NCBI GenBank assembly: GCA_964593805.1
Contig: CAZQHP010000001.1
Span: 128,091 to 192,090, forward strand
DNA length: 64,000 nucleotides
Source: an uncultured Candidatus Saccharibacteria bacterium
GTDB lineage: Bacteria; Patescibacteriota; Saccharimonadia; Saccharimonadales; JBBQAJ01
Direction: 5' to 3'
The notes under the pieces are model-generated. The model saw only the letters and a program-made list of their open reading frames with translations. It was not told the origin of the DNA and did no database searches. Positions 31,352-56,403 of the stretch are shown piece by piece. Numbering within the stretch: the first letter of the stretch is position 1; each line of letters opens with the position of its first letter. The translations under genes and the position numbers were made by a program.

Positions 31352-31549
31352 ATGGCTTACAAGCACACAAACTCTAAAGGAGTAACATACTTCTTGAACT
31401 CAAAGCTCGTCGTATTGCGCGGCGGCAAAGAACAGCGAATTTACTACTTCAGCAAGGATCAGCGCGCCGAAGCTATTGATTCAGTGCCAGCAGGCATGAT
31501 GGTCAACGAAAACCCACGCAACGGTTTCTTGACTGTTAAGCGAAAATAA
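31352..31549 (+). CDS. small basic hypothetical protein (65 aa)
   Basis: Has promoter TTGACA-18-TATGGT (31283-31312), SD GAGAGGGAGAG, and is followed by a strong terminator. Confidence 0.55.
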   Translation: MAYKHTNSKGVTYFLNSKLVVLRGGKEQRIYYFSKDQRAEAIDSVPAGMMVNENPRNGFLTVKRK

Positions 31550-31572: not shown

Positions 31573-31603
31573 CCACCCCAATAAATCGGGGTGGTTTTAT
31601 TTT
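31573..31603 (+). terminator. rho-independent terminator
   Basis: CCACCCC-aataaatc-GGGGTGG followed by TTTTATTTT. Confidence 0.75.
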
Positions 31604-31615
31604 GCTCATGCCTTG
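31601..31615 (+). repeat. island motif copy a (tttGCTCATGCcttg)
   Basis: Matches the consensus TTTGCTCATGCTTGC. Overlaps the stop codon (TGA on the minus strand) of 31606..31989. Confidence 0.6.
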
Positions 31616-31989
31616 GGGTCGTCGGGGAAGTCAGGCATGATGGCTTCTGCTTCTCGGTTCATAGCAATAGTACCCAGCAGTTCAAGCATATCAGCTGCGC
31701 CTTTGCCGTATGCAAAGCGCAATTTTTCGTTATCATCTAAAGATGTCGCTTGTACAGCTTTTGTAGTGTGTTCGCCTAAGAACTCCACAGTTCGAGTAAT
31801 TGCTGGGCAAGCGGCACTGAATTCCTCGGTTCTATCCCCGAGTTCATACAGCTGTGGGACGGTTCCTTCGCGCACGGCTGTGAGGTTGGTTTTTCTGGCT
31901 ATTTGATTCCATGCTTCTAGTATCTCGTCGCCGTCAGGGAGCGGAAAACTTCCCCATATTGTTTTTCTTTCAGGTTTAGACATAAACAT
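31606..31989 (-). CDS. hypothetical protein (127 aa, acidic, cytoplasmic)
   Basis: Protein-like composition. Ends '...DDPKA' with its TGA inside motif copy a. Confidence 0.55.
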   Translation of the reverse strand: MFMSKPERKTIWGSFPLPDGDEILEAWNQIARKTNLTAVREGTVPQLYELGDRTEEFSAACPAITRTVEFLGEHTTKAVQATSLDDNEKLRFAYGKGAADMLELLGTIAMNREAEAIMPDFPDDPKA

Positions 31990-32072
31990 ATATTAACAAC
32001 TGTTACTTATAACAAAAACTGCTTAACCTTAGATTATTGTCGTTTAGTCAACGTTAAAGTATAATATTACTT

Positions 32073-32948
32073 ATGAATCTTGACAGCATGGGAGAGTTTC
32101 TCGGTGCTAACGCTGAAGCAATTGAAGCCATTACAAGCAAGACCGCTGAACAACTTTCAGTGAATGGTATTGCCAGTGTGGTTACAAAGTATAGGGACGA
32201 AGCACCTCAAATTGTCTCAGAAGAGCCTGGGCTTAGAGAAATTGGGATAGATTTATCGCGGCTTGAGCCTGACGAGGCAGAAGAACTGCAGGATGAAGTT
32301 GCTGAAATAAGATGTTCCAGCCTTCTCTCTCGTGCATCAGTAGAATTTGTTACGCTCAGTGGTGCCACTGATATGTTTTTCACCGCCGAAGCCTATAATG
32401 CCGCACCCGAATCAGAAAGAGCGTCTGTACAAATTCAGCACTTTGACTACGAAAAAGCCGAGTACGTCGGTAGAACTTGGGGAGACGACGAAGCAGATCA
32501 TATAACACTAGAAACGGCCACTCTATTTGACGCTTCAGGAGCAGAAGTTGCCAAGAAATTCACCGTTCAGTCTCAAGAAGCAGGGTTATTAGACGCCCTG
32601 GCTATTGTTAGCATCCGAAAAGCTTTTAGGCTTATTGATCATCAAAATCGACTGGCAGCCGACCCGCTGAATCGTCGGGCTATAGAAATACTTGGTTCAA
32701 GGTACGCCAAAGCGTTTTCTCTTATGATGGGCGCTTTTGAAAAAGAGCACGCGCTAGACGCCCAGCTGAGTAATATATGGACTGAGTTTGTTGGTAGTGC
32801 TCAAGAAGACGAAGTTGGGCCCTTGCTTGATGAAATACGCGTCAGAGCTGTTGCCGTTAAAGAGAGCATGGAATTATCCAGCTCCTTCGGTACAAGCATA
32901 CCCTCTGCCGAAAAACTTCGAGAGTTCGTAGCAATATTTGATGATTAA
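32073..32948 (+). CDS. hypothetical protein (291 aa, acidic)
   Basis: The ORF is preceded by a TATAAT box at 32054-32059. No family recognised. Confidence 0.55.
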   Translation: MNLDSMGEFLGANAEAIEAITSKTAEQLSVNGIASVVTKYRDEAPQIVSEEPGLREIGIDLSRLEPDEAEELQDEVAEIRCSSLLSRASVEFVTLSGATDMFFTAEAYNAAPESERASVQIQHFDYEKAEYVGRTWGDDEADHITLETATLFDASGAEVAKKFTVQSQEAGLLDALAIVSIRKAFRLIDHQNRLAADPLNRRAIEILGSRYAKAFSLMMGAFEKEHALDAQLSNIWTEFVGSAQEDEVGPLLDEIRVRAVAVKESMELSSSFGTSIPSAEKLREFVAIFDD

Positions 32949-32964
32949 ACACGGTCTCATTTGT

Positions 32965-32979
32965 TTTGCTCATGCTTGC
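32965..32979 (+). repeat. island motif copy b (TTTGCTCATGCTTGC)
   Basis: Lies 17 nt after the stop of 32073..32948. TTGCTC-17 nt-AATAAT follows, and the ATG at 33013 is about 8 nt past the -10 box (possibly leaderless). Confidence 0.7.
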
Positions 32980-33012
32980 TCCAGTGCTTGGGTAGGTGAA
33001 TAATAGGTACTA

Positions 33013-33363
33013 ATGACGGAGATTGGACGCGAATTCTTGATTATTCCCACGCAAGTGGAGCTTGCTGAAGCCTGGCAACAGTACCGAGATATTGTGGCAC
33101 GTCGTCACCAGCGAGGCCAGTCTATTACAGGGGCCGATGGCCTAGAACGTGTTAGCGGGATGGTTAATGCCGATCAAATACTTGCTGACAATCCGCATTT
33201 GGATGCCAATATAAGTGAACTTGGTGCCGTTGTAGCAAAAAATATCGAAGAAGGTCGTATTACCCCGACCGATGCCTTTAGGCTTGGTGCCCGTCATATA
33301 CTGGAAATGTTTTCGATAGCCACTACCGCATACCAGGCAAAACAACTAGACGAAAATCTTTAG
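33013..33363 (+). CDS. hypothetical protein (116 aa)
   Basis: ORF directly downstream of motif copy b. Shows weak resemblance to 31606..31989 ('E(I/L)(L/A)EAW(N/Q)Q' and 'F..G....LE' at similar spacing). Confidence 0.55.
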   Translation: MTEIGREFLIIPTQVELAEAWQQYRDIVARRHQRGQSITGADGLERVSGMVNADQILADNPHLDANISELGAVVAKNIEEGRITPTDAFRLGARHILEMFSIATTAYQAKQLDENL

Positions 33364-33398
33364 TCCTGAAATTAGAATCTAATTTACTTTGAAATTCA

Positions 33399-33413
33399 GT
33401 TGCTCATGCTTGT
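33399..33413 (+). repeat. island motif copy c (gTTGCTCATGCTTGt)
   Basis: Lies 36 nt after the stop of 33013..33363. Overlaps the TGA stop of the minus-strand ORF 33404..33754. Confidence 0.65.
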
Positions 33414-33754
33414 GGCGCAGAGCATACTCGCCTAGTGACAAAGCCAAAAAGCCTTTTTACTTCAGTCGGGCCTTTGCATCGACCAATATTATTGACGTAA
33501 TCAACCGCATTATTCTCGGCGTCCGACCCAGAATCACCATGTACCATGATAGGCTTTGAGCTTCTATCTTCAGTGTCCCTATAATGAACTGTCAAATCTG
33601 TTGGACCCTGTGGGACGCCACGTTCAAATGAAAATGATGCAGAGCTCCTATCCTGCGAAATCGATCCCTGAGTCACACTAGACACTACAACGAGAGAATC
33701 AATGCGAGCAGCGCAGTTTCCCATATTCGGACAACCTTCACAGAATTTCGCCAT
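33404..33754 (-). CDS. hypothetical protein (116 aa) with an N-terminal Cys cluster
   Basis: 'MAKFCEGCPNMGNC...'. Ends '...SAPQA' with its stop inside motif copy c. Confidence 0.5.
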   Translation of the reverse strand: MAKFCEGCPNMGNCAARIDSLVVVSSVTQGSISQDRSSASFSFERGVPQGPTDLTVHYRDTEDRSSKPIMVHGDSGSDAENNAVDYVNNIGRCKGPTEVKRLFGFVTRRVCSAPQA

Positions 33755-33786
33755 ACAAACTCCTTAGAACTAACATACTTGGCTAA

Positions 33787-34311
33787 TCAAGATGTTTTTT
33801 GAAGTTTCTTGTATTGGTTGTATATGTCATCGATTCTTTCTTTGGTGATGTGTGAAGTGCCATGTTCCTTAATCATGCCCGCAAAACGTATGGCGTCATT
33901 GGCTCTTGGTTTTAGCTCATTGGGCAGTTTATTAATTTCGACCCAGTGTGTGCCGTTATAGTGACCATTCTGACCGTACTTACCGAAAAATGCGTTGATA
34001 TGTTTAACGTACTTAGTCTCTTTACCCTTTGTATCAGCTGTATATAGAACGAATTCGTTGTTTTGTGATTTGATATTTACGATAAAGTCCTGCTTGAACT
34101 TCGGAGTTTTAAGATAGTGAGCGTAAACATAGAAGCCTATGATTTCATCGTCAGGCGAGTTGGTTGTGTGAGAGGTACTGACGGCTTGTAGCGTGATGAA
34201 CTTATTGATGTCCAGCTTGAGAGCTTGTGTAAACTCTGGGTGGCTTTTACACCACACCTTTAACTCATCCGAGAATGGTTGCATTTCAATCAATAGTTCT
34301 TGTAGGGTCAT
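33787..34311 (-). CDS. hypothetical protein (174 aa)
   Basis: Lys/Asn-rich ORF in an AT-rich segment. No family recognised. Confidence 0.5.
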   Translation of the reverse strand: MTLQELLIEMQPFSDELKVWCKSHPEFTQALKLDINKFITLQAVSTSHTTNSPDDEIIGFYVYAHYLKTPKFKQDFIVNIKSQNNEFVLYTADTKGKETKYVKHINAFFGKYGQNGHYNGTHWVEINKLPNELKPRANDAIRFAGMIKEHGTSHITKERIDDIYNQYKKLQKTS

Positions 34312-34361
34312 GCCGTTTATTATACTGTGCGATCTCCCTACAGTGACGCTGATGTTCTTGG

Positions 34362-34496
34362 CTATTTTCCTTTTAGTTTGTTTTTTGGTACAGAGACGAT
34401 TTTTTTCATAGCCTTTGTGAAGTTATCAAAGGGCTTTTCTTTTTCTCCATACGATTGAGGGGTGGAGGGCTTTTGACCTTTCTTTTTTTCAGTCAT
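34362..34496 (-). CDS. possible small Lys-rich protein (44 aa; below the ORF-track cutoff)
   Basis: Hand translation gives 'MTEKKKGQKPSTPQSYGEKEKPFDNFTKAMKKIVSVPKNKLKGK'. Lies 50 nt upstream of 33787..34311 on the same strand. Confidence 0.25.
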   Translation of the reverse strand: MTEKKKGQKPSTPQSYGEKEKPFDNFTKAMKKIVSVPKNKLKGK

Positions 34497-34581
34497 GCAT
34501 TCAGTCTAGCATTTTCACTTGACTTTAGGCACTTAACAGGAGTACTTTAAACATAAGCTCTGAACACATAAAAGGATTAAA

Positions 34582-35235
34582 ATGGCAAAAAGCAAAACGA
34601 TTAAAACTAGCACAGCAAGAAAAGGAAAAACTATGGCCAAAGCAAAATCTTCTAAATTCGGTAAAATATCCAAAGCATTCAGTTTCTCTACAACAAAAGG
34701 TAAATTTTTAGTGTTTATGCTAACTTTTGCAGTAGTTGGTGGGGGGTATGCGGCTTACCAGGCTTTTGCGGCCACTTCTGTGCCAGCAGATCTGAGTGGT
34801 GTTTTATATAGTTACGGTCCTTTTACTGCAGGGGACGGCGTCAAAGGAGTTATTGATTGTTCTAATGCCGCTGGCCAAACAGGCTATGGACCGCTGCGCA
34901 GCTGCATACAACAAAATCCAGCAAATCATAGTCAGTATCGTACTGGGTTGTGGAGTGTAGTTACTAAAGGCTTCAGCCCCACTTCTGGGTGGCTAAATGA
35001 CTCTTCAGATCCAACGACATATTTTTATAAAGTGTGTAAAAACATGGACAATTACTTCAGTGGAACCAGGGCATTGGACACTGGCTATGGACCAATTTCA
35101 TATGGCCAAATTTTTAGGACATATTACAATCCTGACTCTAAAAAAACAATCTGGCAAATCAAATGGGCGAACAGAAGCACTATAACCGGCAACTGTTCGG
35201 TAAATGGAAACTGGATGGACGCAAAAGGTTGGTAA
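34582..35235 (+). CDS. secreted/membrane-anchored hypothetical protein (217 aa, Cys-containing ectodomain)
   Basis: Basic N-terminus plus TM 'FLVFMLTFAVVGGGYAAYQAFAA'. Has an SD-like AAAGGA before the ATG. Confidence 0.55.
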   Translation: MAKSKTIKTSTARKGKTMAKAKSSKFGKISKAFSFSTTKGKFLVFMLTFAVVGGGYAAYQAFAATSVPADLSGVLYSYGPFTAGDGVKGVIDCSNAAGQTGYGPLRSCIQQNPANHSQYRTGLWSVVTKGFSPTSGWLNDSSDPTTYFYKVCKNMDNYFSGTRALDTGYGPISYGQIFRTYYNPDSKKTIWQIKWANRSTITGNCSVNGNWMDAKGW

Positions 35236-35262
35236 ACCAATTCTGTTCGTGACAAATTTCTG

Positions 35263-36111
35263 CTACGTCTTCTCCCAAATATCCGCAAAGACTCCATGCT
35301 GTTTTAGCTTTTCGGTAGTAGTAAATCGTATATCAGGCCGATCTTCATCGTCCCTCTCCCAGATATCAGCAATAAGTCCTCTGGTTCGTCGTTTGGCGTA
35401 GATAAGATCAGATACTTTAGCACAGACAAGTAAGATAACGGGCTTTGGGTCTCCGTAGGTTTCGTCTTCCCAGATACCGAGTTCTTCATCCATGTAGGTG
35501 ACGTATTGTTTGAGCCGGTATCGTAAACGGTACTGTGGCAGTTCGGAATCAAAGATTTCAAGTAAATAGCTCTCGGTAGCTTCCATTTCATTCATGCCGT
35601 CATCACGTAATTTGGTGAAGCATAAATTTGGACGAATATATTCACTATCCGCAAGGAAGTGGTACTTACCGCTACCAAGGTAGTCTGCTTCTGTTTCATA
35701 GTAGTAGCAGGTACGTATGTGGTTTTTCGTTTCATCAAACGTGTCTAGTGTCACTCCAGCGTCAGCTAGGAGCAGGCAATGTTCAATGAAGCTTTTGCTG
35801 CGGTCATGGTCTTTGTAGCGTTTATGTAGTTCGGCTTCGTCATGTACGCCAAAGTGACGATAACGGTTAATAGCATTCTTGGAAAGGTAATAAATAGCTG
35901 GTGTACTTTTATCTATGAAGCTCGCTTTGTTATATATCCAATCTATGTAGCCTTTAGCTCTTAAGTCTTTAAGCCATAGGTAAGTATTCTTTTTATCTTT
36001 CTGTTTTAGGAATGTTTGTAGTTGTAGTCTTGTTAGGTATCTATGTTTATATAGAAGATCAATAATTTCTTTTTGTCTGTAAGTTATTTTTGGTAGATTT
36101 AGTGTTTTCAT
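35263..36111 (-). CDS. replication-relaxation family protein (plasmid/ICE-type wHTH protein)
   Basis: The N-terminus 'ITYRQKEIIDLLYKHRYLTRLQLQTFL...WLKDLRAKGYI' matches the Replic_Relax pattern as I remember it. The size (282 aa) is typical. Confidence 0.6.
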   Translation of the reverse strand: MKTLNLPKITYRQKEIIDLLYKHRYLTRLQLQTFLKQKDKKNTYLWLKDLRAKGYIDWIYNKASFIDKSTPAIYYLSKNAINRYRHFGVHDEAELHKRYKDHDRSKSFIEHCLLLADAGVTLDTFDETKNHIRTCYYYETEADYLGSGKYHFLADSEYIRPNLCFTKLRDDGMNEMEATESYLLEIFDSELPQYRLRYRLKQYVTYMDEELGIWEDETYGDPKPVILLVCAKVSDLIYAKRRTRGLIADIWERDDEDRPDIRFTTTEKLKQHGVFADIWEKT

Positions 36112-36162
36112 TATGCCAAACCCTCCTACTCCCTATATGTATAAAGGTAGGAAACACTATAA

Positions 36163-37156
36163 CGAATAAATAACAGATAGACACAAGCAGGATTTATGCC
36201 CCCGCTCGTGGGGGTGTAAATTAATTGTTTATTTGCTAACCAAAGTTCTGTACATAAGTCGCCTGTTACAGCTACCAAACCATTGATTAAAGCGTTCGCC
36301 GTCTTTGAGCATACGGGTATTGTAGCGGTAGGTGTGTTCGTCTACGTATCTACCTAAATGGTTGTGTGAAACGTGCGTATACGTTCCTTTGATAGAGCGT
36401 TTCATTAAATTCCAAAAGCCATCAATAGTCGTTGTAGACACTAAGCCACGAGCATATTCGCCTTGGCTATGATTTACCGAATCGTGAATAAATAACCATT
36501 TAGCTCGGGTGTAGATTCGGCTTTCGTCTGTATGCAATATGGCACCTTCGTTTAGCGTGGCTTTAAGGAACGGCATGGTATTCGTAGCGTCAGCATGCTT
36601 AGTTGCAAAGGCTCTAATTTGTCCAACGTCTTTCTTCTTTTCTACTACGCCTATGACTGCTGACTTATTCTTCCAGCGCTCATCTGGATTAGATTTACCG
36701 CCAATATATGTCTCGTCAGCTTCTACGGGGTCGTCTAGCTTGTCAAAGCCACCATAAGCCATAGCAGCACGAATGCGGTGATCCATGAACCACGCAGTCT
36801 TTTGAGTTACACCTAGCGCACGGGCTATTTCGTAGGAACTAACACCGTTCTTGGCATTTATGATCATCCAGACAGCCGGTAGCCATTTATCTAGACCAAG
36901 TGGGCTATCCTCAAAAATTGTGCCGACTTTGACAGAAAACTGGCGCTTGGGATGACGTGACTTGCACTGATAACGTTGCTGGCTTTTAAGGTAACTAACG
37001 TCTATACGACCACAAGTGGGGCAAATAGCACCATCAGGCCAACGCAAAGAAGCCATATATTCGATACATACCTGTGGCTTAGAGAAGTAACGGACTGCTT
37101 CAATAAGGGTGGATGGATACCTCATATATACAGTGTACACCTCTGTTATTGATTAG
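36163..37156 (-). mobile_element. IS1595-family insertion sequence (boundaries tentative)
   Basis: A single transposase gene is flanked by imperfect inverted repeats, 36163-36178 'cgaataaataacagat' and 37141-37156 (reverse complement 'ctaatcaataacagag'), matching 13 of 16. No target-site duplication was seen. Confidence 0.4.
36229..37140 (-). CDS. IS1595-family transposase (zinc-ribbon plus ISXO2-like DDE domain)
   Basis: 'RWPDGAICPTCGR...YQCKS..RQFSVKVGTIFEDSPLGLDKWLPAVWMI' and 'EADETYIGG...'. The likely true start is the ATG at 37125. Confidence 0.85.
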   Translation of the reverse strand: MYTVYMRYPSTLIEAVRYFSKPQVCIEYMASLRWPDGAICPTCGRIDVSYLKSQQRYQCKSRHPKRQFSVKVGTIFEDSPLGLDKWLPAVWMIINAKNGVSSYEIARALGVTQKTAWFMDHRIRAAMAYGGFDKLDDPVEADETYIGGKSNPDERWKNKSAVIGVVEKKKDVGQIRAFATKHADATNTMPFLKATLNEGAILHTDESRIYTRAKWLFIHDSVNHSQGEYARGLVSTTTIDGFWNLMKRSIKGTYTHVSHNHLGRYVDEHTYRYNTRMLKDGERFNQWFGSCNRRLMYRTLVSK

Positions 37157-37325
37157 TCAAGTATATTAGTTCTAACTCCTTTGATTTTTATATATCTTAG
37201 CGTAATTGATTATGATAGCCATGAGCGCATTTCTCACATCTATAAATCTCCAGACTAATTAGGCTTCAATCTCGGTGCAAGTACTCTAAAAACTTTTTAA
37301 ATTCCCCATCTTGATAAGTCTTGAT

Positions 37326-37340
37326 TTTGCTCGTGCTTGC
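37326..37340 (+). repeat. island motif copy d (TTTGCTCgTGCTTGC)
   Basis: Followed by TTGCAT-17 nt-TTAAAT, then SD AAGGAG and the ATG at 37384. Confidence 0.7.
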
Positions 37341-37383
37341 ATATTTCTAGCGATACATATTAAATGCACGCAAGGAGAAACAG

Positions 37384-37809
37384 ATGACACTGCCAGATAA
37401 GCCATCAAATGGGCTAGACATTCTAGGAACTACACAAAGTCTCGCATATTCAGAAGATTGCATGAGAACTTGCCCGCAATTACAGCAAAAGGTACTTACG
37501 GCTCTGATGAAGTATGCCATAGAAGGCGGTGAGCTACTAACACATATCAATGACGAGATTGAGCGGGCTAAGGCTGTAGAAGAATTGCCAGAACACTGTG
37601 AGCTTGGACCAACACAAATTTCAGAGCACGACACTTTGCCTGGAGGCTACACACCAAAGGTGGGCGGTTTTACGGCTTCTATATATCTGGGCCAAACCCC
37701 TTGGGGCCAAACAATTTTAGGTGTTTGCCAAATCGACAGAAGTAGAAGTATGAATAGCGGGGAGCCCGATACACGTTTTATGAAAAGAGATTATATTCAA
37801 GGGGAATAG
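37384..37809 (+). CDS. hypothetical protein (141 aa)
   Basis: ORF with a strong SD, downstream of motif copy d. Confidence 0.55.
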   Translation: MTLPDKPSNGLDILGTTQSLAYSEDCMRTCPQLQQKVLTALMKYAIEGGELLTHINDEIERAKAVEELPEHCELGPTQISEHDTLPGGYTPKVGGFTASIYLGQTPWGQTILGVCQIDRSRSMNSGEPDTRFMKRDYIQGE

Positions 37810-37820
37810 CGAAATCTATT

Positions 37821-37835
37821 TTTGCTAGTGCTTGC
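37821..37835 (+). repeat. island motif copy e (TTTGCTagTGCTTGC)
   Basis: The run of T's before it begins 10 nt after the stop of 37384..37809. TTGCAA-18 nt-TACCCT precedes the ATG at 37873. Confidence 0.65.
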
Positions 37836-37872
37836 AACTAGTATCCTATTTAACATACCCTATTTCTTACAA

Positions 37873-38514
37873 ATGGTAACAGTTAACCCAAATCAACCTC
37901 GTCACCCTTTTGTTCACATAACAAAGGGAGCGCAAAAGCACTTAGCTAACCTGGAGATAGACAGCGAGCGGCTGAACTCGTTTTTACGTGATGATATGGG
38001 GTATGAAAGTAGTATCACGCCAAGATATGTGTTGTATGGCAGGCTTAAACGGTCTGGTTTAAAAGGGCTCCATATTCCTTTTACGCCATATATATTCATA
38101 CAAACTCCATCATCAATGTGGCATGATACTGACAATGACCAAGGCCTAGCCAGAACATCAGTTCATGAGACCACTCATTTTATTGACAGCTGGGATCATC
38201 CGGTCAGGACAGCTGGTGAAACTGCATTAAGATATGCTGCCACACTAGCTTCTATCAAATATTTGGGCCTTGATTCTGCCGAAACAACAGGAACCGTACT
38301 TCTGCCTTACCAACTGCTCGCATTTTATCTTTTGCGGTTCAGTGTTTATTATAACCATCTCGATCCGTCTGAAAGACGTGCACGCAAAAATGAGTATGAC
38401 CCTATTCTACTGACAGCTAGCCAGGAAGCAATGTCTATCTCTGAAGACTACCAAACAATTTATGACCAGGCACAGAATCCTGTTCCGTACGACTGGGTCA
38501 TGGACGGTGAGTAG
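37873..38514 (+). CDS. hypothetical protein with an HExxH motif (possible zinc metallopeptidase)
   Basis: 'TSVHETTHFIDSW' contains H-E-x-x-H. The start was moved from the track's TTG at 37822, which lies inside the motif, to the ATG at 37873. Confidence 0.5.
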   Translation: MVTVNPNQPRHPFVHITKGAQKHLANLEIDSERLNSFLRDDMGYESSITPRYVLYGRLKRSGLKGLHIPFTPYIFIQTPSSMWHDTDNDQGLARTSVHETTHFIDSWDHPVRTAGETALRYAATLASIKYLGLDSAETTGTVLLPYQLLAFYLLRFSVYYNHLDPSERRARKNEYDPILLTASQEAMSISEDYQTIYDQAQNPVPYDWVMDGE

Positions 38515-38518
38515 CGCT

Positions 38519-38533
38519 TTCGCTCATGCTTGC
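38519..38533 (+). repeat. island motif copy f (TTcGCTCATGCTTGC)
   Basis: Starts 4 nt after the stop of 37873..38514. The minus-strand small ORF 38538..38663 stops 4 nt from it. Its outer triplets are CGC...GCG, whereas other copies have TGC...GCA. Confidence 0.65.
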
Positions 38534-38537
38534 GTTT

Positions 38538-38663
38538 TTATGGACTAGTCTGTCGCGTGGTATGGGGGCCCGGATCGATATAAGGGAGCGCTATTCTCAT
38601 AGCGAATAGAATGGCGAATATAGACACCGTAACAACGGCCACAAAGATAATCCTGGATTTCAT
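38538..38663 (-). CDS. possible small hydrophobic membrane peptide (41 aa; below the ORF-track cutoff)
   Basis: Hand translation gives 'MKSRIIFVAVVTVSIFAILFAMRIALPYIDPGPHTTRQTSP'. The ATG lies 7 nt after the stop of 38671..38961 on the same strand. Confidence 0.35.
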   Translation of the reverse strand: MKSRIIFVAVVTVSIFAILFAMRIALPYIDPGPHTTRQTSP

Positions 38664-38670
38664 ACCGCAA

Positions 38671-38961
38671 TTATAACCGGAAAATTTCCCGGAGTCCGAC
38701 TGCTATATCCATGCGTTGTCTCATCCACTGATTGAACAATGCGTCTCTCACTAGATTCTCTACGCTCTGGGCGCCCTTTACTTGCTCTGGATCCTCAACT
38801 CTTGTCTCGTCAACGATAACTTCCATCATACCTGATTGTCCTAGCCACCAAACCACAACATCAGTATCATCAAATCGGGTTACGCATTCGTCAAAGCCGC
38901 CTCGACCATCTTCGTGCTCATGTCTGTAAACTTCTGTGCCTTCTGGTAGTATTAAACTCAT
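38671..38961 (-). CDS. hypothetical protein (96 aa, acidic)
   Basis: The ORF has protein-like composition. The antisense + ORF is Ser/Thr-rich junk. Confidence 0.5.
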   Translation of the reverse strand: MSLILPEGTEVYRHEHEDGRGGFDECVTRFDDTDVVVWWLGQSGMMEVIVDETRVEDPEQVKGAQSVENLVRDALFNQWMRQRMDIAVGLREIFRL

Positions 38962-38995
38962 TCTGCAATTATACCAAAGGTCTAAAACATAACTA

Positions 38996-39010
38996 ACTGC
39001 TCATGGTTGC
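38996..39010 (+). repeat. island motif copy g (acTGCTCATGgTTGC)
   Basis: Followed by TTGCAT-18 nt-AAATAT, SD AAAGGAG and the ATG at 39057. Confidence 0.6.
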
Positions 39011-39056
39011 ATTAATGGCAAATCAGAGGAAAATATGAGTCAAAGGAGTAATTATC

Positions 39057-39362
39057 ATGGCTGAAAAGCGGTTCGGAAGGCTAGACGCAATTCGACACAG
39101 CGTGTTTACTATTGCTCACTACGCAGATGCTGTAATAAAAGGAGAAGCGGTACTTATCCCGGTGGAGCGTAAAACATTTTCCGACAAAATAGCGCCTTTA
39201 CTTAATCCATATGGTTGGGCAAACCCCGAAAGGGTAGTAGACGAAGCGTTGCAGGCACCACTTACAACTTCTGCTAAAACAGACGCAGAAAGGCATTATG
39301 ATTTGCCAAGCGGAACGCTCAGTACAAACGCATGGTCAGCTTCTGAAAGGGCTGAAGTTTAA
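39057..39362 (+). CDS. hypothetical protein (101 aa)
   Basis: ORF with a good SD, downstream of motif copy g. Confidence 0.55.
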   Translation: MAEKRFGRLDAIRHSVFTIAHYADAVIKGEAVLIPVERKTFSDKIAPLLNPYGWANPERVVDEALQAPLTTSAKTDAERHYDLPSGTLSTNAWSASERAEV

Positions 39363-39507
39363 GAAACAAATTCTTACAATTACACTACTCGAACAATAAT
39401 TAGGAATTTTACTTAACGTGTTAACTTTTGTTTGATATTATGGAGTCCATGGCAGAGACAAGAACTCATTGCAAAACCTATCTTCGAGGTGAAAACGGGG
39501 TTTTGTT

Positions 39508-40263
39508 ATGAGTTCTATAGTTAAAGTTACCAACGTAACTAAGAAGTACGGCAAGAAAAAGGCCGTAGACGGTATAGGCTTTGAAATCAAAGAGGGCGAA
39601 ATCTTTGGCATTCTGGGTCCCAACGGCGCTGGCAAAACCACCACGCTGGAGATGATTGAAACCCTGCGGGAGATTGACGGTGGAAATATTATGGTAGATG
39701 GTCTGGACGTGTCCAAACACGGGCAGCAGATTAAATACATCATTGGCGTGCAGCCTCAAAGCCCAGCGTTTATGGACAAAGTCAAACTGACTGAACACCT
39801 GGAGCAGCTAGCCTCCGCCTACGGCGCCAAAGTGAACGCCAAAAAGCTACTAGCAGAAGTCGGTCTGACAGACAGAGCCAGTGCTTATGTAGAGCAGCTA
39901 TCTGGCGGCCAGAAACAGCGTTTTAGCATCGTGGCTTCGCTGGTGCATAAACCCAAAGTATTTTTCATGGATGAACCAACCACCGGGCTAGACCCGCAAG
40001 CGCGGCGCAATTTGTGGGAGCTTATCAAAGAAACCCGGGACAAAGGTGTCACGATTCTGCTGACCACCCACTATATGGAAGAAGCCGAACTGCTCTGCGA
40101 CCGCGTGGCAATCATGGACAAAGGCAAAATCATCGCCCTAGATACGCCCAAAAATCTAGTCCAACAGCTGCTAAAACGAGGCTTCAAAAAGGCCCAGCAC
40201 GTCGAACAGGCCAACCTGGAAGACGTGTTTATTGACCTAACCGGAAAGGATTTGAGGGACTAG
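39508..40263 (+). CDS. ABC transporter ATP-binding protein (ABC-2/drug-exporter type)
   Basis: Walker A 'GPNGAGKTT', signature 'LSGGQKQRF', Walker B 'VFFMDEPTTGLD'. Confidence 0.9.
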   Translation: MSSIVKVTNVTKKYGKKKAVDGIGFEIKEGEIFGILGPNGAGKTTTLEMIETLREIDGGNIMVDGLDVSKHGQQIKYIIGVQPQSPAFMDKVKLTEHLEQLASAYGAKVNAKKLLAEVGLTDRASAYVEQLSGGQKQRFSIVASLVHKPKVFFMDEPTTGLDPQARRNLWELIKETRDKGVTILLTTHYMEEAELLCDRVAIMDKGKIIALDTPKNLVQQLLKRGFKKAQHVEQANLEDVFIDLTGKDLRD

Positions 40264-40265
40264 TT

Positions 40266-41372
40266 ATGAAAAAAACGTTTTTACCGGTAAAAACTTTCGC
40301 CCGCATCGCTATTCGCCGGTCATTCAGAGATAAAACAGCCATATTCTTTATCTTTTTGTTCCCGTTAATTTTCCTGTTTGTTTTTGGCGGTATTTTTGGC
40401 AAAAAAAGCGAAGTATCTTTCAAAATCGCCCTGGTAAACCAGTCTAGCAGTGAATTTTCCCAGCAGTTCGTGAAACAAATGGGCGAGTCCAAAGTTTTCA
40501 AAATAGATCAAGAAGCAACATCTTTGGACTCCGCCAAAGAAAAAATGAGCCGTGCCCAGCTGGATGCCGCCATTGTATTGCCAGAAGACTTTGGAGCCGT
40601 AAAAAACGCCCAGTACCCCTCGGGCCAGGCCAAAATTTACTACACCCAAAACAGCCAAAGTGCCGCCCAAACGCTGGAATCGGTACTAAATTCCGTCTTC
40701 GCGGACATCAACAAAGGATTAGTCAAAGCCGATGTGCCATTTACGGCCGCCAGCGAGCAGATAAACGCCAAAAGCCTGAGCCAGTTTGACTACACTTTTG
40801 CCGGTTTGCTTGGTTTTAGCATCATAGGACTCGGTATATTTGGTCCGGTAAACGTCTTTCCGGAACTGAAAAAACAAGGAATTTTGCGCCGCCTGCACAC
40901 CACGCCGCTCAAAGTCTGGCAGTATTTTCTGGCAAACGTTCTGAGCCAAGCGTTCGTGGGGATTTTTTCTATCCTGCTGATGTTCGCGGTTGCTATGGTG
41001 GTGTTCCATCTAAAAGTCAGCGGCAATCCGTTTGAACTTGGAGCGTACATTTTATTTGGAATTGCCATGATTTTTGGAATCGGCATGGCCATTGGCGGCT
41101 GGGCGCGCGACGTCAACCAAGCCGCGCCGCTGTCTAACATAGTTGTTTTCCCCATGATGTTTTTGTCTGGCACGTTTTTCCCACGCTTTCTCATGCCAGA
41201 ATGGCTGCAGACTGTGTCTTCTTTTCTGCCGCTGACGCCTGTAATTGACGGTATCCGCCTGATTGCCACGGAGGGCAAACATCTGACTCAGCTTGGCCCG
41301 CAGCTGGGCATGATGGCTGCCTGGATGGTTATTGTATATGCTATCGCCTTCCGCTCGTTCCGCTGGGAATAG
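40266..41372 (+). CDS. ABC-2 type transporter permease
   Basis: 368 aa. Has an N-terminal TM, a large extracytoplasmic loop and then 5 TM segments (ABC2_membrane-like). Confidence 0.7.
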   Translation: MKKTFLPVKTFARIAIRRSFRDKTAIFFIFLFPLIFLFVFGGIFGKKSEVSFKIALVNQSSSEFSQQFVKQMGESKVFKIDQEATSLDSAKEKMSRAQLDAAIVLPEDFGAVKNAQYPSGQAKIYYTQNSQSAAQTLESVLNSVFADINKGLVKADVPFTAASEQINAKSLSQFDYTFAGLLGFSIIGLGIFGPVNVFPELKKQGILRRLHTTPLKVWQYFLANVLSQAFVGIFSILLMFAVAMVVFHLKVSGNPFELGAYILFGIAMIFGIGMAIGGWARDVNQAAPLSNIVVFPMMFLSGTFFPRFLMPEWLQTVSSFLPLTPVIDGIRLIATEGKHLTQLGPQLGMMAAWMVIVYAIAFRSFRWE

Positions 41373-41374
41373 AA

Positions 41375-41389
41375 AATTCTCATGCTTGC
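41375..41389 (+). repeat. island motif copy h (aaTtCTCATGCTTGC)
   Basis: Starts 3 nt after the permease stop. TTGCGC-17 nt-TATGGT follows, with ATGs at 41410 and 41422. The latter would be near-leaderless. Confidence 0.6.
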
Positions 41390-41409
41390 GCTGGTTTTAA
41401 GTTGGGAGT

Positions 41410-41952
41410 ATGGTGTCAAATATGACTGCACCAGGTGAGGTTCTAGCTAACCCAGAAATTACTACTGCTAACTTCGGCGAGGTATTACTTTTTGCATACG
41501 CTGGTTTTATGCGCCAAATCGGTCAAGACCAAGAAATCGCAGCTAATCTACGTATGCGGGCTGTAGCGGCCGAGGAGACACTTTTCGGAGCCATGGCAGA
41601 TGGTATGCAAGAGGGACAGGGGTTAGAGGTTTTGGATCTGGCTACTAGGTCGCTTGGGCTAAGGGAACTTGCTAAGATTGCCGAAAACCTACACGGCGGT
41701 GATTATAAACATTTTCCAAATTGTTGGGATCGCGACGTTAGAAACAAAAAAGTCACCGTGACTCCACTTGAGGGTAGAAATAGACCAGAAACAGAGGAGT
41801 TCACTGGCTTTATCTGGGACATCAATCTACGTCCAGGTTACTCGCGACTGACGGTTGCAAAAAGATTATTACTGGGTAACACGAGACATTTTAGGGAGCT
41901 GGTGGATCCTGTTGATTTTCAAGCGAATGTGAAGTTGCAGTTTCACGAATAA
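41410..41952 (+). CDS. hypothetical protein (180 aa)
   Basis: ORF downstream of motif copy h. No family recognised. Confidence 0.5.
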   Translation: MVSNMTAPGEVLANPEITTANFGEVLLFAYAGFMRQIGQDQEIAANLRMRAVAAEETLFGAMADGMQEGQGLEVLDLATRSLGLRELAKIAENLHGGDYKHFPNCWDRDVRNKKVTVTPLEGRNRPETEEFTGFIWDINLRPGYSRLTVAKRLLLGNTRHFRELVDPVDFQANVKLQFHE

Positions 41953-41963
41953 GTACATCTAAC

Positions 41964-41978
41964 TTTGCTATGCTGTAG
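41964..41978 (+). repeat. degenerate island motif copy i (TTTGCT-ATGCTGTAG)
   Basis: Lies 12 nt after the stop of 41410..41952 and ends 2 nt before the ATG at 41981. One base is deleted relative to the consensus. Confidence 0.35.
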
Positions 41979-41980
41979 TT

Positions 41981-42622
41981 ATGAAACCGAGGCAATTGCA
42001 GCTGGTGGTGTGGGGGATGAGCCTGGGGGCGGTGGTTTTGGCAATCTTTGCATGGGGCGCGAGCTATGATTGGAAAATTTCCGAGCTAAGCACCTACGAG
42101 CTATTCCCGGTGTTTGGTCTGGTGGCATTTAGTCTCATGTGGAGTCATTATGTGGCAGCGGCGCTCAGGTTGCACTTCGGGCTGGACAAATCAGTACTCA
42201 GCAACTACTTCGAGGTAACCAGCCTGGCAGTGTTGGCGGCAATCCTGCTACATCCAGGGCTTTTGGCGTGGCAATTGTGGCGTGACGGTCTGGGCTTGCC
42301 GCCCGGCAGCGAGCTGAATTATGCCGGCTCACGCATGAAAATGACGGTCTTGCTGGGCATGATAGCGCTAGTCGTATTCCTGGCTTACGAATTTAGGCGC
42401 GCCTTTGATCAAAAATCCTGGTGGAAATATGTCCAGTACGGCTCTGACGCGGCCATCTTGCTGATTGTCATCCACTCCCTAAAGCTGGGGACTCATCTAC
42501 AAACCGGCTGGTTCAAAACAGTTTGGCTGTTTTACGCTGTGAGCCTGCTAATTTCGATTGCCTACATCTACTACCGAAAGGCAACTAACAAGAAAACAAC
42601 TCCACCTCTTGTCAAATCTTGA
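41981..42622 (+). CDS. polytopic membrane protein with conserved-looking His residues, unknown function
   Basis: 213 aa with about 6 TM segments. His residues lie in TM segments ('MWSHYVAAALRLH', 'LLHPG', 'VIHSLKLGTH'). A b-type cytochrome or ferric-reductase-like role is speculative. Confidence 0.5.
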   Translation: MKPRQLQLVVWGMSLGAVVLAIFAWGASYDWKISELSTYELFPVFGLVAFSLMWSHYVAAALRLHFGLDKSVLSNYFEVTSLAVLAAILLHPGLLAWQLWRDGLGLPPGSELNYAGSRMKMTVLLGMIALVVFLAYEFRRAFDQKSWWKYVQYGSDAAILLIVIHSLKLGTHLQTGWFKTVWLFYAVSLLISIAYIYYRKATNKKTTPPLVKS

Positions 42623-45351: not shown

Positions 45352-45427
45352 TGGTGGGGGTGGTTGGAATCGAACCAACTACCAAGACGTTATGAGCGTC
45401 CTGCTCTAACCGATGAGCTACACCCCC
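45352..45427 (-). tRNA. tRNA with CAU anticodon (elongator Met or Ile2/k2C), CCA encoded
   Basis: Hand-folded cloverleaf: GGGGGTG/CACCCCC acceptor, GCTC/GAGC D stem, GGACG-CTCATAA-CGTCT anticodon arm and GTTGG-TTCGATT-CCAAC T arm. Confidence 0.85.
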
Positions 45428-45488
45428 GTATCATCATCAGGCTAACAGGGATGAGTATAGCAGATTTTGGTGTATAATAAGTCTACAA

Positions 45489-45938
45489 ATGTTAGGAAAA
45501 ATCAAAAAATATCAAAAATCTGCTGTCTGGCGCAATCTGCGCGATGTGCGGTTTTTGGGGTTCATGGTGTTTGGCGTCATGGTGCTGCTGGCTAGCTGGA
45601 GCGGGGTTTCGGTAATTGAAACCAATTACGAACTGCAAAAACAAATTGCCCAACTGGACCAGCAAAACCAAGTCCAGCAGCTTACCAATACCAACCTAAA
45701 GCTGCAGAATGAATACTACAACACCGACACGTTCCTGGAACTAACAGCCCGCAAACAATTTGGCAAAGGCGCTCCCGGCGAAAAACTGCTACTGGTACCA
45801 AAAAGCGTGGCTCTGGCTCATGCCAAGCAATTGCCAGAGGAAAAACCAGCCGCGCCTGCCACCCAGCCCACAGACCAGCCCGGGTATCAGAAAAACTTCA
45901 ATGCTTGGATGGACTTTATTTTCCACCGCGAAAGCTAG
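45489..45938 (+). CDS. FtsB/DivIC-like septum formation initiator
   Basis: N-terminal TM then the coiled coil 'NYELQKQIAQLDQQNQVQQLTNTNLKLQNE...'. The size is typical. Confidence 0.6.
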   Translation: MLGKIKKYQKSAVWRNLRDVRFLGFMVFGVMVLLASWSGVSVIETNYELQKQIAQLDQQNQVQQLTNTNLKLQNEYYNTDTFLELTARKQFGKGAPGEKLLLVPKSVALAHAKQLPEEKPAAPATQPTDQPGYQKNFNAWMDFIFHRES

Positions 45939-45946
45939 CAACAAAT

Positions 45947-46489
45947 TTATTTGAGCTTAGACAGGTGGCGCAAACCAAGCAGTACCAAAATGCCCATAAT
46001 CGCGGCGCCGGCAAAAGAGGCAACAGAGGCGTACATAGCCAGGATACCAAACGTCCAGTAAGCATAGCCGTCACCCAGCAGCAGCCCCCGTAGCGTCTCG
46101 CCCTGGAACAGCGTTTGTTTTTGCTGTTGCAGCTTCGTGTTGGTGGGGTCTTTCATGGCTTCGGCGCTGACTTCGGAATACGTCTTACCGCCGGCGACTT
46201 TTTCCAGGTGCCTGCCAATAAAGCCGTTGGCATAAGCTTTGGCTTTAGGTCCGTCGTCTACTAACTGTCCGGCATACTGCTGGAGATCTGGAAACACAGC
46301 CGGGTCTAAACTGGCGCTGCCTGCCGGCGGAAAGTAAACTTTTTGGGCTGCCAGCTCAGTCCGGACGCTATTGGTCGCGAATTTGTAGCCGTACCACGCC
46401 AGACTGCCCGCGACTAACAGCATTGCCGTGGCCGCTATCCCCAATAATATAAATACCTTGTCTATTGCTTTTCTTTCAGCTGTTGCCAT
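45947..46489 (-). CDS. two-TM membrane protein, unknown function
   Basis: 180 aa with TM helices at both ends flanking a soluble loop. Confidence 0.5.
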   Translation of the reverse strand: MATAERKAIDKVFILLGIAATAMLLVAGSLAWYGYKFATNSVRTELAAQKVYFPPAGSASLDPAVFPDLQQYAGQLVDDGPKAKAYANGFIGRHLEKVAGGKTYSEVSAEAMKDPTNTKLQQQKQTLFQGETLRGLLLGDGYAYWTFGILAMYASVASFAGAAIMGILVLLGLRHLSKLK

Positions 46490-46585
46490 ATTGATTCCTT
46501 TGAATTTAATAGTTCATAGATAATCATAACGCTAACGGTTTATTATTAATAGCCCGCGTCTTCACAAATGGGCTATTATTAAAGT

Positions 46586-47467: not shown

Positions 47468-47471
47468 CAAC

Positions 47472-48056: not shown

Positions 48057-48179
48057 AAAACCTCCTTCGTAAGCCTATATTGTATCAGCTTCACGAAACA
48101 CCAAACAGGAACAGGACTTAATTAACGGGTGAAGCGAGCTATCCGAAAAAGCCGACGACTTCACAAGACGAATAAAAAA

Positions 48180-48749: not shown

Positions 48750-48882
48750 ACTTTGGTCTCCCTTATTTATAAGCTTAAGTGTATACCTATTTTTGTAATT
48801 TTATAAAGCTTATGTTGTATAAAATATTTAAAATCATAAGCTCAATAGTTTGGCAATTGTGGATAAACGCCAGTAGTTGTAT

Positions 48883-49461
48883 TTACAATGATTCGATATT
48901 AGTGAATTCTGACAGGATTTTTTTATAGAGCTCGTTGTCTTCGGCATTTTTACAATTATTAGGCTGACTACCGTTAACAAAATAGTATTCACCAATTTTT
49001 ACAGCTACGTCCTTCAGCTGGTCGTTTAACTTCTGGTATCTAGTCCAGTCTACGCTTAGGTTGCAGGACTTATCTTTTAAATATTCTGGTCTGACTGTTA
49101 GGGTTATCGCCGAGACCTCCTGACCGTATTGCGCGTATGAATAATTTTTATGGGCGTAAGTAACTTTTTCAGCTTCTTGCATCTTTAGTTTTATGCCCCA
49201 CTCTTTAACCACAAGGTAATTCTCAGCATTGCTTGCCACTTCTTTGCTTATGTTTGTACTGGGTACGGACTTAGTTTTCTCTTCAGTTTCCACGAGCGTG
49301 GTAAGGTCCGTCGTATCCGTCGTATCTGTGGGAGTTATAGAGTTAGTGGGTTTAGGTTGAGAGTAAAGTATTTTCCCGCCCGCAAAACCAGTCAAAATTG
49401 ATGCAGTTATCAGGACAATTAATTTTGTCCGGCTGCTAATGTTTCTCAAAAATCTTTTCAT
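48883..49461 (-). CDS. membrane-anchored hypothetical protein
   Basis: 192 aa with an N-terminal TM and a Thr/Asp-rich linker. Confidence 0.5.
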   Translation of the reverse strand: MKRFLRNISSRTKLIVLITASILTGFAGGKILYSQPKPTNSITPTDTTDTTDLTTLVETEEKTKSVPSTNISKEVASNAENYLVVKEWGIKLKMQEAEKVTYAHKNYSYAQYGQEVSAITLTVRPEYLKDKSCNLSVDWTRYQKLNDQLKDVAVKIGEYYFVNGSQPNNCKNAEDNELYKKILSEFTNIESL

Positions 49462-49591
49462 AAACTAAATACATTTTGGACCAACGACGACCATGTTAGC
49501 AAGCACAAGCAAAAAGAAAAAGCTTCATATTTATGTTGAGATTTTTTGTTGGCTGTTCAGTTTGCTAGACAGCTAACAAGCACGCCGGCTG

Positions 49592-50437: not shown

Positions 50438-50600
50438 GTATTTATCCTGCTTATGCTTATAACTATAACTGATGTTTGAGGCAAAGTTATAAATGATAAA
50501 AAAATCTAGCCTTTTACGGGGAGATAATTTACAGGTTATTAAACTGCAAAGATTAACTCCTACGTAGGTGCGTCTTCTTAACACCCATGATCAAAGTGAC

Positions 50601-51956: not shown

Positions 51957-52087
51957 ATACGAAAAGCATAGCACGGAGTATACTTTTTAAATACTCCGTT
52001 AAGATAAAATAACAAAATGGGATTAGCCAACAGTGTCGCCCTTATTCTATGGTTAAACCCTGGAATAAAATCGGTTAGGATTAACTA

Positions 52088-52648: not shown

Positions 52649-52692
52649 AAAAACCTCCTATTACATGGACTATTATCTCACCTAAACGACTA

Positions 52693-54949: not shown

Positions 54950-55015
54950 TTCCTATGTTACTACCATAAGCATAATTCTGGGTGGACAAAACTACAATGG
55001 TTCAGATTATCGAAA

Positions 55016-55806: not shown

Positions 55807-56403
55807 TTAGGATGGAAGCACAAATTCAATTCCTACCTCAGCAAGCAAACAACTGATTCCTCCAACGATTGTTTCTGGATCTGTGGCAAAACCAAATTCC
55901 TTCCCAGTTGCCCCAATGTCACTGATTGGGTGCAGATAGCCTGGGCTAAAACGATATGCCGTATATCCATTTGAAAAAGTATCGACTACGCCAACCCTAT
56001 AATCTTCAGTAGCAATAATCTCGTAGACATTAATGCCTCCATAACTTGATTCTTTGCCCTCAAAAGCACAATTAACCGTTCCAATAGGCCAGCCACCTAT
56101 TAATTCCAAGATTTTTGTATATTTTCCCGACCAAATAGTATCCATTTCTTTAAAAACTTCAACGGGGCTTTTTTCTACATACTTGTTCAGAAGGGGTATA
56201 CCTTGTTCCAATATATGCGTGACCGCAAGTCTGCGTTGTTGCTCTGCATTCGTTTGTTCACGTTTTTCCCGTGCAAAAAATGGAAGCCGACGTGGCTTAG
56301 TAGGCGAAGTATAGTGCTTTAGGAGTGGGCGTGGCTTTCTCTCGGGCATACTCGAATATTCGTTCAATTGTATGAAAAACGCAAGCATTAGCAAAAAGAA
56401 CAA
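55807..56403 (-). CDS. hypothetical cytoplasmic protein, bracketed by tRNA-derived repeats
   Basis: 198-aa ORF. The likely start is 'MPERKPRP' at 56349. No family recognised. Confidence 0.45.
   Translation of the reverse strand: MFFLLMLAFFIQLNEYSSMPERKPRPLLKHYTSPTKPRRLPFFAREKREQTNAEQQRRLAVTHILEQGIPLLNKYVEKSPVEVFKEMDTIWSGKYTKILELIGGWPIGTVNCAFEGKESSYGGINVYEIIATEDYRVGVVDTFSNGYTAYRFSPGYLHPISDIGATGKEFGFATDPETIVGGISCLLAEVGIEFVLPS

Follow-up and report, generated by a model that had tools for sequence, protein, structure and literature searches.

A short repeated motif, TTTGCTCATGCTTGC, stands before small genes in a stretch of 64,000 nucleotides (nt) from an uncultured Candidatus Saccharibacteria bacterium (contig CAZQHP010000001.1, positions 128,091 to 192,090 of the forward strand). 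The whole of this stretch is referred to here as the window, and positions are counted from its first letter. Most probably it forms the upstream half of a distinct class of promoters found in a group of Saccharimonadales, upstream of small, variable genes whose start codons follow about 31 nt later. The consensus of the class is (T-rich) G-C-T-C-A-T-G-C-T-T-G-C, n-n, 16–18 nt, nAnAAT, 6–8 nt, ATG. Several observations support this reading: the enrichment of the motif, its orientation with the downstream gene, its fixed distance from the start codon, the spacing of a -10-like box, and its conservation across lineages in which the flanking sequences have diverged. From these features of the sequence we infer the rest, namely a transcription start at these sites, a dedicated factor and the sign of the regulation. 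Neither the motif string nor any promoter motif of Saccharibacteria was found described in full-text searches of the literature.

When the window was searched for TTTGCTCATGCTTGC with at most three mismatches, 14 matches were obtained against 3.67 expected, and none of 100 shuffles reached 14. By this enrichment, the repeated 15-base motif is real. The alignment of 20 copies, taken from the window and from other genomes, defines a conserved core, the 12-mer GCTCATGCTTGC, with T/A-rich bases on its 5′ side. The central positions (CA) are the most variable of the motif, and the upstream conservation ends 2–6 nt 5′ of it, beyond which lies the end of the previous gene. A first-pass annotation of the same DNA had listed nine copies, all in plus orientation and specific to an "island". 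This island corresponds to 7.9 kb inserted at a conserved hot spot between genes (hot spot 1); hot spot 2 is the variable stretch 3′ of an ATP-binding cassette (ABC)-2 permease gene. Seven of the nine copies are sound: the one at 32965 has no mismatch, those at 37326 and 38519 have one, those at 33399 and 37821 have two, and those at 38996 and 41375 have three. Of the remaining two, the copy at 31601 is a truncated relic of 11 nt (by chance ~0.03 exact 11-mers would be found per 64 kb), and the sequence at 41964 represents another kind of element. At 56554 and 56607, where the first-pass annotation had noted GCTCATGC cores outside the island, TTGC does not follow, and these cores are not copies. 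Two strong copies that it had overlooked are present on the minus strand at 49499–49513 (two mismatches) and 56381–56395 (one mismatch), outside the island and each 31–37 nt 5′ of a minus-strand ATG. Therefore, the motif is neither island-specific nor single-stranded, and it is found as well in other Saccharibacteria contigs.

The copies share a geometry consisting of TTGCnn, 16–18 nt, a hexamer whose second base is A and whose sixth is T (A2/T6), 6–8 nt and ATG, which holds for five plus-strand and both minus-strand copies of the window. TTGC or TTGT, and with it the TTG that begins a -35-like hexamer, ends every strong copy. Examples of the -10 hexamers are AATAAT, TATGGT, GAATAT, GATAAT, GAGAAT and CATAAT; read by eye, A2 and T6 are retained in nearly all of them. 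A -10-like hexamer occurs at a spacer of 16–18 nt in about 15 of 22 hits, where the background has a mean of -2.7 on the same score and 3% of it reaches a score of 4. All the copies with a gene start within 50 nt are oriented with that gene, including those at 49499 and 56381. Among independent strong copies, 10 of 17 are followed at 27–33 nt by the start of an open reading frame (ORF, at least 40 codons); for random positions the share is 5.6% (binomial P = 3.8e-9). At 32965, 41375 and 56381 the ATG comes 31–33 nt after the motif, a distance which therefore implies a putative leaderless mRNA, and a short leader with a Shine-Dalgarno sequence is found at 37326 and 38996. The other promoters of the window carry TTGACA or TTGACT, so the motif promoters form a separate class. 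A scan with a generic σ70 consensus calls none of them, which points to weak core promoters set apart by extra conserved bases.

It had been observed that every copy sits next to a stop codon; this is correct but carries no information, as the stop on the 5′ side lies anywhere from 2 to 16 nt away and the distance to the downstream start is nearly fixed. The proposal of a shared promoter or operator is supported, and extended by the recurrence of the -35/-10/ATG arrangement in other Saccharibacteria. The argument for a dimeric helix-turn-helix protein bound to a dyad TGC-N8-GCA is not supported, and the dyad is not general: the base 3′ of TTGC is A in only 10 of the 20 aligned copies.

For the comparison with other genomes, in which loci and contigs are labelled with L-numbers (L203, L227, etc.), a position matrix was built from the window copies and a hit of at least 20 bits was taken as strong. 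There are 17 such hits in 1.47 Mb of Saccharibacteria DNA other than the window versus 2 in 0.94 Mb of unrelated viral DNA, and the intragenic hits are few and the lowest-scoring. In the Saccharibacteria contigs L203, L227, L247, L129, L124 and L164 the motif always points at the next gene. In L203, for instance, six consecutive genes each have a copy in front of them, all within 3.1 kb, in an array that ends at the homologue of the window gene starting at 41981. L227 has four copies on a single strand, and its 41981 homologue is only 48% identical. Two perfect copies are found in L247 (6158 and 6675). L129 carries three copies across both hot spots, each before a small ORF, and one of them resembles the 38996 copy in the same place. 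The copy of L124 lies directly 3′ of the permease, which is the position of the 41375 copy, and L162 has a weaker copy there; L139, L142, L164 and L191 have one copy each, with the same geometry. The housekeeping parts of the window are free of copies, and so are the 10 kb that adjoin it on each side in this genome (~84 kb scanned); all copies are confined to variable segments.

Some of these neighbourhoods have features of their own. In L247 (3797–7164) the two copies lie directly 3′ of an operon with a SMODS/DncV-like nucleotidyltransferase, of the type of the cyclic-oligonucleotide-based antiphage signalling system (CBASS-like), a hint that some motif-driven genes lie in defence-type neighbourhoods. 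In L227 (4467–4882) a motif copy occupies a divergent intergenic region shared with a 118-amino-acid gene whose product is PadR-type-like by sequence inspection only, and an identical 9-mer, CAACTACTT, stands 5′ of each of two L227 copies.

A closer view of the conservation is given by the gene that starts at 33013, downstream of the perfect copy. Its homologue in L203 is 80% identical, as is, approximately, the coding DNA (~80%), and the motif-ATG spacer and the 3′ untranslated region are near random between the two. Of the 15 positions of the upstream motif 11 are kept, with conservation setting in at CTCATGCTTGC; in the downstream motif, GTTGCTCATGCTTGT, all 15 agree, and past it the similarity ends. 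In L203 this downstream copy precedes an acyltransferase gene, and in the window a convergent minus-strand gene abuts it; the window copy at 33399 is therefore taken as a relic whose downstream gene has been replaced. Homologues of 33013 with the motif upstream are found in L203, L164 and L251, and distant members of the family (28–51% identity) in L164, L251 and L247 have the motif or a degenerate form of it on their 5′ side. Judged from these alignments, the 12-mer is under selection and travels with genes, and it is not obligatory for any one of them. The family comprises about 10 members, all hypothetical, and the AlphaFold model of 33013 (predicted local distance difference test, pLDDT, 82; four helices) has no significant match in the PDB.

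The mechanism proposed for the motif promoters is as follows. The last four bases of the motif, TTGC, would serve as a weak -35 element for a holoenzyme of the σ70 family, and the 8–11 conserved bases just 5′ of them (approximately -46 to -36, centred near -41) would be the site for a dedicated factor that touches the RNA polymerase. This factor could be a class-II-type activator, or a repressor whose operator overlaps the -35. Transcription would begin at or just before the ATG and give a leaderless mRNA, with a minority of short leaders provided with a Shine-Dalgarno sequence. Each small accessory gene is provided with a copy, so that a series of such genes pointing the same way resembles an array of cassettes of constant polarity. 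The copies at 31601, 33399 and 38519 would be relics of gene turnover. As the first-pass annotation had claimed, these three lack both a downstream plus-strand gene and an acceptable -10. The constant polarity regardless of gene direction which it also described is an impression due to these same orphan copies. Its statement that the minus-strand ORFs 31606–31989 and 33404–33754 stop inside the motif is confirmed as well: the reverse complement provides GCA TGA, the first in-frame stop met.

Comparison with known systems gives this mechanism a familiar frame. Class II activator promoters (CRP/FNR at -41.5, the pho boxes of PhoB) are alike in a site near -41 that adjoins or overlaps a weak -35, in a -10 of the primary-sigma type at normal spacing, and in the sharing of the site by unlinked genes that constitute a regulon. 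They differ in that the motif is unrelated in sequence, asymmetric and of ~12 bp, with neither a 22-bp dyad nor a clear 7+4+7 repeat (only TTGC recurs 10 bp apart within the motif, and several copies do without the left one), and in that its targets are leaderless ORFan genes. Only the position, from about -46 to -36, fits the site of a class II activator or an operator; no candidate for the protein that would bind there was found. A dedicated factor is probably required by the motif promoters, be it a transcription factor bound near -41 or an alternative sigma. Global operator regulons of mobile elements, such as the operators of KorA/KorB at many promoters of IncP plasmids, and those of DdrO at leaderless promoters in Deinococcus (the radiation/desiccation response motif, RDRM) are similar in that one short repeat is found at many unrelated promoters, overlapping the core elements. 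However, those operators are palindromic and bound by known dimeric repressors, whereas the motif has no dyad symmetry, is chromosomal and is kept across several Saccharimonadales lineages.

Several points weigh against the promoter interpretation. The transcription starts are placed by geometry alone, and the -10 boxes are weak and partly picked by eye. The hits in relatives are independent sequences, yet they were found with a matrix derived from the window. In L203 (830) and in L251 the -10/ATG block is 4 nt nearer to the motif, which a rigid -35 reading does not explain; the L227 copy at 6774 is ~70 nt from its gene, and three window copies have no target gene. The members of the 33013 family in L246 and L248 have no motif, so it is not obligatory for the family. 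Finally, the window yielded no candidate for a regulator or a sigma, and no sigma gene was found in the window or the comparison loci. The LexA-like (LexA_DNA_bind) protein at 6134–6586 is tied to the motif by nothing and appears to head the neighbouring ABC/BacA operon.

It might also be that an alternative factor of the σ70 family recognises all 12 bases as its -35 element, in which case the motif genes would be the regulon of that factor and no separate protein would be involved. The length, asymmetry and strict orientation of the element, which ends at the -35 position, are in its favour, together with the TTGACA of the housekeeping promoters and a first base of the -10 that, read by eye, is often not T (GATAAT, GAATAT, GAGAAT, CATAAT), slightly unlike the TATAAT found elsewhere. 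Nevertheless, a -35 of 12 bp exceeds any known footprint of sigma region 4, the -10 retains the A2/T6 signature of primary sigma factors, the left part of the motif tolerates substitutions (ACCACTCATGCTTGC, AATTCTCATGCTTGC), and the loci studied contain no sigma gene, as noted above. The alternative sigma is considered unlikely, yet it is the foremost competing explanation.

According to another explanation, the motif marks cassette boundaries, or serves for crossover, in an integron-like shuffling of ORFans between hot spots, and maybe acts as a promoter at the same time. Small ORFs and motifs indeed form arrays at two conserved intergenic hot spots, and the 33013 cassette is found at three genomic places (hot spot 1 of the window, hot spot 2 of L203, and L164). 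The homology between the window and L203 sets in within the left motif and stops at the right one, which shares two rare variants, G1 and T15, in both genomes, and the orphan copies have their breakpoints at the 3′ border of the motif or close to it. Integron arrays with attC sites, such as those with the Vibrio cholerae repeats, are similar in having runs of small ORFans split by a uniformly oriented repeat between conserved genes. Nonetheless, attC sites are imperfect inverted repeats of 57–141 bp that fold as hairpins, lie 3′ of mostly promoterless ORFs and have IntI and attI adjacent, and none of this is found here. Neither a tyrosine nor a serine recombinase was found in the window or the arrays; the sole recombinase is an IS1595 transposase, flanked by 27-nt inverted repeats that belong to it, and no integrase appeared in Pfam scans of most window ORFs or in the precomputed Pfam hits of L001, L203 and L227–L247. 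No inverted repeat or hairpin was found around any copy, and the single-stranded DNA folds of seven copies (z = -0.7 to +1.3) are no better than those of shuffles. The motif lies 27–37 nt 5′ of start codons, with its own -10 box and a fixed distance to the ATG, and it is missing both at the empty hot-spot sites of relatives and from the inserts that L123, L124 and L131 have in the same hot spot. Breakpoints at the motifs are expected anyway, because non-coding flanks diverge fast, and one shared cassette was examined. The integron-like boundary suggested in the first-pass annotation is thus not upheld, and a crossover role of this kind is judged very improbable. Hardly less improbable is that the 12-mer doubles as a crossover point for promoter-gene modules, as microhomology for their exchange and without IntI or attC, among the hot spots of naturally competent Saccharibacteria; in a weaker form of the idea, a single dedicated regulator might switch the whole hypervariable accessory set, for example on host contact.

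Least probable of all is that no dedicated factor exists and the copies descend from one promoter segment duplicated with accessory genes, their likeness reflecting recent descent: the copies at 49499 and 56381 do share a 23-nt similarity, those at 38519 and 56381 share GCTTGCGTTTTT, with six further downstream bases, and a T-rich upstream extension is common to some copies (repeat family D4), but the motif is kept between genomes whose flanking proteins are only 48–78% identical (L227, L203) and 5′ of family members at 28–33% identity with the adjacent spacer randomised, and purifying selection on the 12-mer therefore follows.

Other known elements were considered and rejected. A σ54 promoter (TGGCAC-N5-TTGC) would share TTGC, but its -24 reads TTTGCT here, no copy has GG, and the A-rich -10 stands at σ70 spacing. 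A DNA uptake sequence (DUS/USS) is not compatible with a motif that is so rare, is absent from the housekeeping parts of the ~84 kb and has its orientation tied to the downstream gene. The terminal repeat of an insertion sequence (IS) or miniature inverted-repeat transposable element (MITE) with an outward -35 is discarded, as nothing is conserved past the short motif. A start codon on the reverse strand (GCAAGC ATG AGC AAA) is not conserved either, since positions 7–8 vary (CA, CG, AG, TG, AA). The middle promoters of phage T4, in which the MotA box TGCTTtA at -30 accompanies a σ70 -10, are alike in having TGCTT in place of a canonical -35. The likeness is superficial: the MotA box is 11–13 nt from the -10, against 18–20 nt for the end of TGCTTGC, and there are neither MotA/AsiA homologues nor phage genes.

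Searches among viruses also gave no related system. The exact 15-mer had single, apparently random hits in IMG/VR among the matches listed, and a stricter composite pattern (motif, -10 and ATG) was found in 20 viral contigs, mostly as single hits. The match in L256 is the reverse complement of ATG-AGC-AAG gene starts. L264 (IMGVR_UViG_3300004806_000031), with several copies and TCATGCTTA iterons, was judged an unrelated phage contig, and its sharing of the core sequence with the motif is probably coincidental. In this contig about 12 tandem TCATGCTTA/TCATGCTTG iterons (6830–7040) lie 3′ of a terminase-like gene, and a promoter-like site, ATGCTCATGCTTGC-N-TAGAAT, is present. By reading of the translations only, it also has GcrA-type-like regulator and small-terminase-like ORFs, the first of which would point to an alphaproteobacterial phage.

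The coordinates of the motif copies and of the larger elements around them are collected in Table 1.

Table 1. Motif copies, putative promoter modules and associated elements of the window.
Feature	Position	Strand	Description
Hot spot 1, 7.9-kb insertion	~31590..39405		Between gene 31352–31549, with its terminator, and the ABC-transporter operon; 100–940 nt in relatives
Truncated relic of the motif	31601..31611	+	TTTGCTCATGC, then CTTG; below matrix threshold; at the left edge of the insertion, directly 3′ of the conserved terminator of gene 31352–31549; no -35 TTGC, -10 box or downstream plus-strand gene; T-rich upstream extension shared (repeat family D4)
Putative promoter module	32965..33015	+	Motif 32965–32979, perfect consensus; -10 AATAAT 32999–33004; ATG 33013, 33 nt after motif end; gene 33013–33363, 116 amino acids
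Orphan copy GTTGCTCATGCTTGT	33399..33413	+	No usable -10, no plus-strand gene; overlaps the stop of minus-strand gene 33404–33754
IS1595-family transposon	33764..37175		27-nt terminal inverted repeats 33764–33790 / 37149–37175, 93% complementary
Putative promoter module	37326..37386	+	Motif 37326–37340; -10 TTAAAT 37360–37365; Shine-Dalgarno GGAG; ATG 37384; gene 37384–37809, 141 amino acids
Putative promoter module	37821..37866	+	Motif 37821–37835; -10 TACCCT 37856–37861; ATG 37873, 37 nt after motif end; ORF to 38514 with HETTH motif
Orphan copy TTCGCTCATGCTTGC	38519..38533	+	No -10, no plus-strand gene; faces the 3′ ends of minus-strand ORFs 38538–38663 and 38671–38961
Putative promoter module	38996..39059	+	Motif ACTGCTCATGGTTGC 38996–39010; -10 GAAAAT/AAATAT ~39029–39035; Shine-Dalgarno AGGAG; ATG 39057; gene 39057–39362; divergent from the TATAAT promoter of minus-strand gene 38671–38961
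Putative promoter module	41375..41424	+	Motif AATTCTCATGCTTGC 41375–41389, 2 nt 3′ of the ABC-2 permease stop; -10 TATGGT 41409–41414; ATG 41422 (176-amino-acid ORFan), 32 nt after motif end
Not a motif copy	41964..41978	+	TTTGCTATGCTGTAG, conserved -10 region (TATGCT), 6 nt 5′ of the ATG of gene 41981–42622
Putative promoter module	49461..49513	-	Motif TTTGCTTGTGCTTGC 49499–49513; ATG 49461 of gene 48883–49461, 37 nt after motif
Putative promoter module	56347..56395	-	Motif TTTGCTAATGCTTGC 56381–56395; -10 GAATAT 56361–56356; ATG 56349, 31 nt after motif end; 180-amino-acid ORF down to 55807

The element at 41964 deserves a separate comment. TTTGCTATGCTGTAG is kept directly 5′ of the homologues of gene 41981–42622 in L126 (~2870) and L203 (3148), and is probably the putative -10 (TATGCT) of a leaderless mRNA of this gene. 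The sequence 5′ of the gene, which encodes a membrane protein of 213 amino acids, reads TTTGCTATGCT(G/A)... and has one missing base with respect to the left half of the main motif; the likeness between the two may be coincidental.

The surroundings of the motif are best described from the backbone shared with relatives, which consists of a Mur ligase, two small genes, a 65-amino-acid gene with a conserved terminator, the ABC ATPase, the ABC-2 permease, a variable segment, the membrane protein (41981), Dus and DivIC. The permease has 80 homologues in genomes labelled Saccharibacteria or Saccharimonadales. In most relatives the distance from the 65-amino-acid gene to the ABC operon is 100–150 nt and comprises the terminator, a palindrome CTTAAC..GTTAAG and a GATATAGT -10 box. 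The guanine plus cytosine (GC) content of the insertion in the window is 0.41–0.45, against 0.47–0.52 in the backbone. The IS1595 transposon located in the insertion, with no motif copy inside or at its ends, carries the transposase (36229–37140), a Replic_Relax protein (35263–36111) and three ORFans. An IS1595 transposase adjoins a Replic_Relax gene also in L248, and the pair may travel together.

Two features were noticed at the ABC-transporter operon. A near-palindrome, CTTAACGTGTTAAC/G (39412–39425), covers the -35 of the operon promoter, with a GATATAGT-type -10 next to it. The near-palindrome is conserved in many Saccharimonadales (L123, L124, L126, L127, L129, L164, L139 and L191), and is probably the putative operator of a local regulator. 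In addition, a 20-codon upstream ORF (ATG 39449) ends at the start of the ABC ATPase and is spanned (39454–39516) by an 18-nt inverted repeat (39461–39478 / 39499–39516, 89% complementary); in relatives the ATPase starts directly after the -10 box. This could be a leader-peptide or attenuator arrangement.

Farther downstream, three tRNA genes with a CAT anticodon lie within 15 kb (45352, 56680 and 60196, in 45352–60272). The 11 kb between the tRNAs at 45352 and 56680 have a GC content of 0.42–0.44 and ORFs without homologues in the related loci. A run of minus-strand genes in this segment (49592–55642) encodes proteins with hydrophobic N-termini that resemble type IV prepilins (e.g., GFSAVEGLLIVIVLGIIG and GFHAVEVVIVFLVVGVIG); these proteins are weakly similar to each other, and the annotation precomputed for L271 records one of them as Peptidase_M23. 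A 40-nt imperfect direct repeat (75%; 55673–55712 / 56647–56686), one copy of which is the terminator plus the 3′ end of the tRNA-Met gene (56680–56754), flanks ~1 kb with the motif-driven gene 55807–56349. This segment resembles what is left of an element that had inserted at the tRNA.

As for the encoded proteins, nearly all genes of the variable segments lack any match in Pfam, PHROGs or PADLOC. The motif-driven proteins have no Pfam match, the ORF at 41410 has no homologue besides itself, and PADLOC gave no defence-island signal. PHROGs returned nothing for 10 island proteins, nor did a megablast of the island against the phage collection. Rfam detected three tRNAs and nothing else in the window.

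To our knowledge, almost nothing is known about the transcription signals and regulons of Saccharibacteria and other Patescibacteria. The motif is a new cis-regulatory element of a familiar kind, that is, a promoter or operator which defines a regulon, and it is tied to fast-evolving accessory genes. Its presence at a fixed distance from the start codons of unrelated ORFans offers, in only 12 bp, a testable regulon in the "dark" accessory genome of these episymbionts. It is also a handle with which to search for the regulator by DNA-affinity capture or DNA affinity purification sequencing (DAP-seq), and a compact, portable promoter for new genetic systems in the phylum. Furthermore, it calls for caution in genome scans, as runs of ORFans with a repeated, oriented spacer can be a promoter regulon and not an integron.

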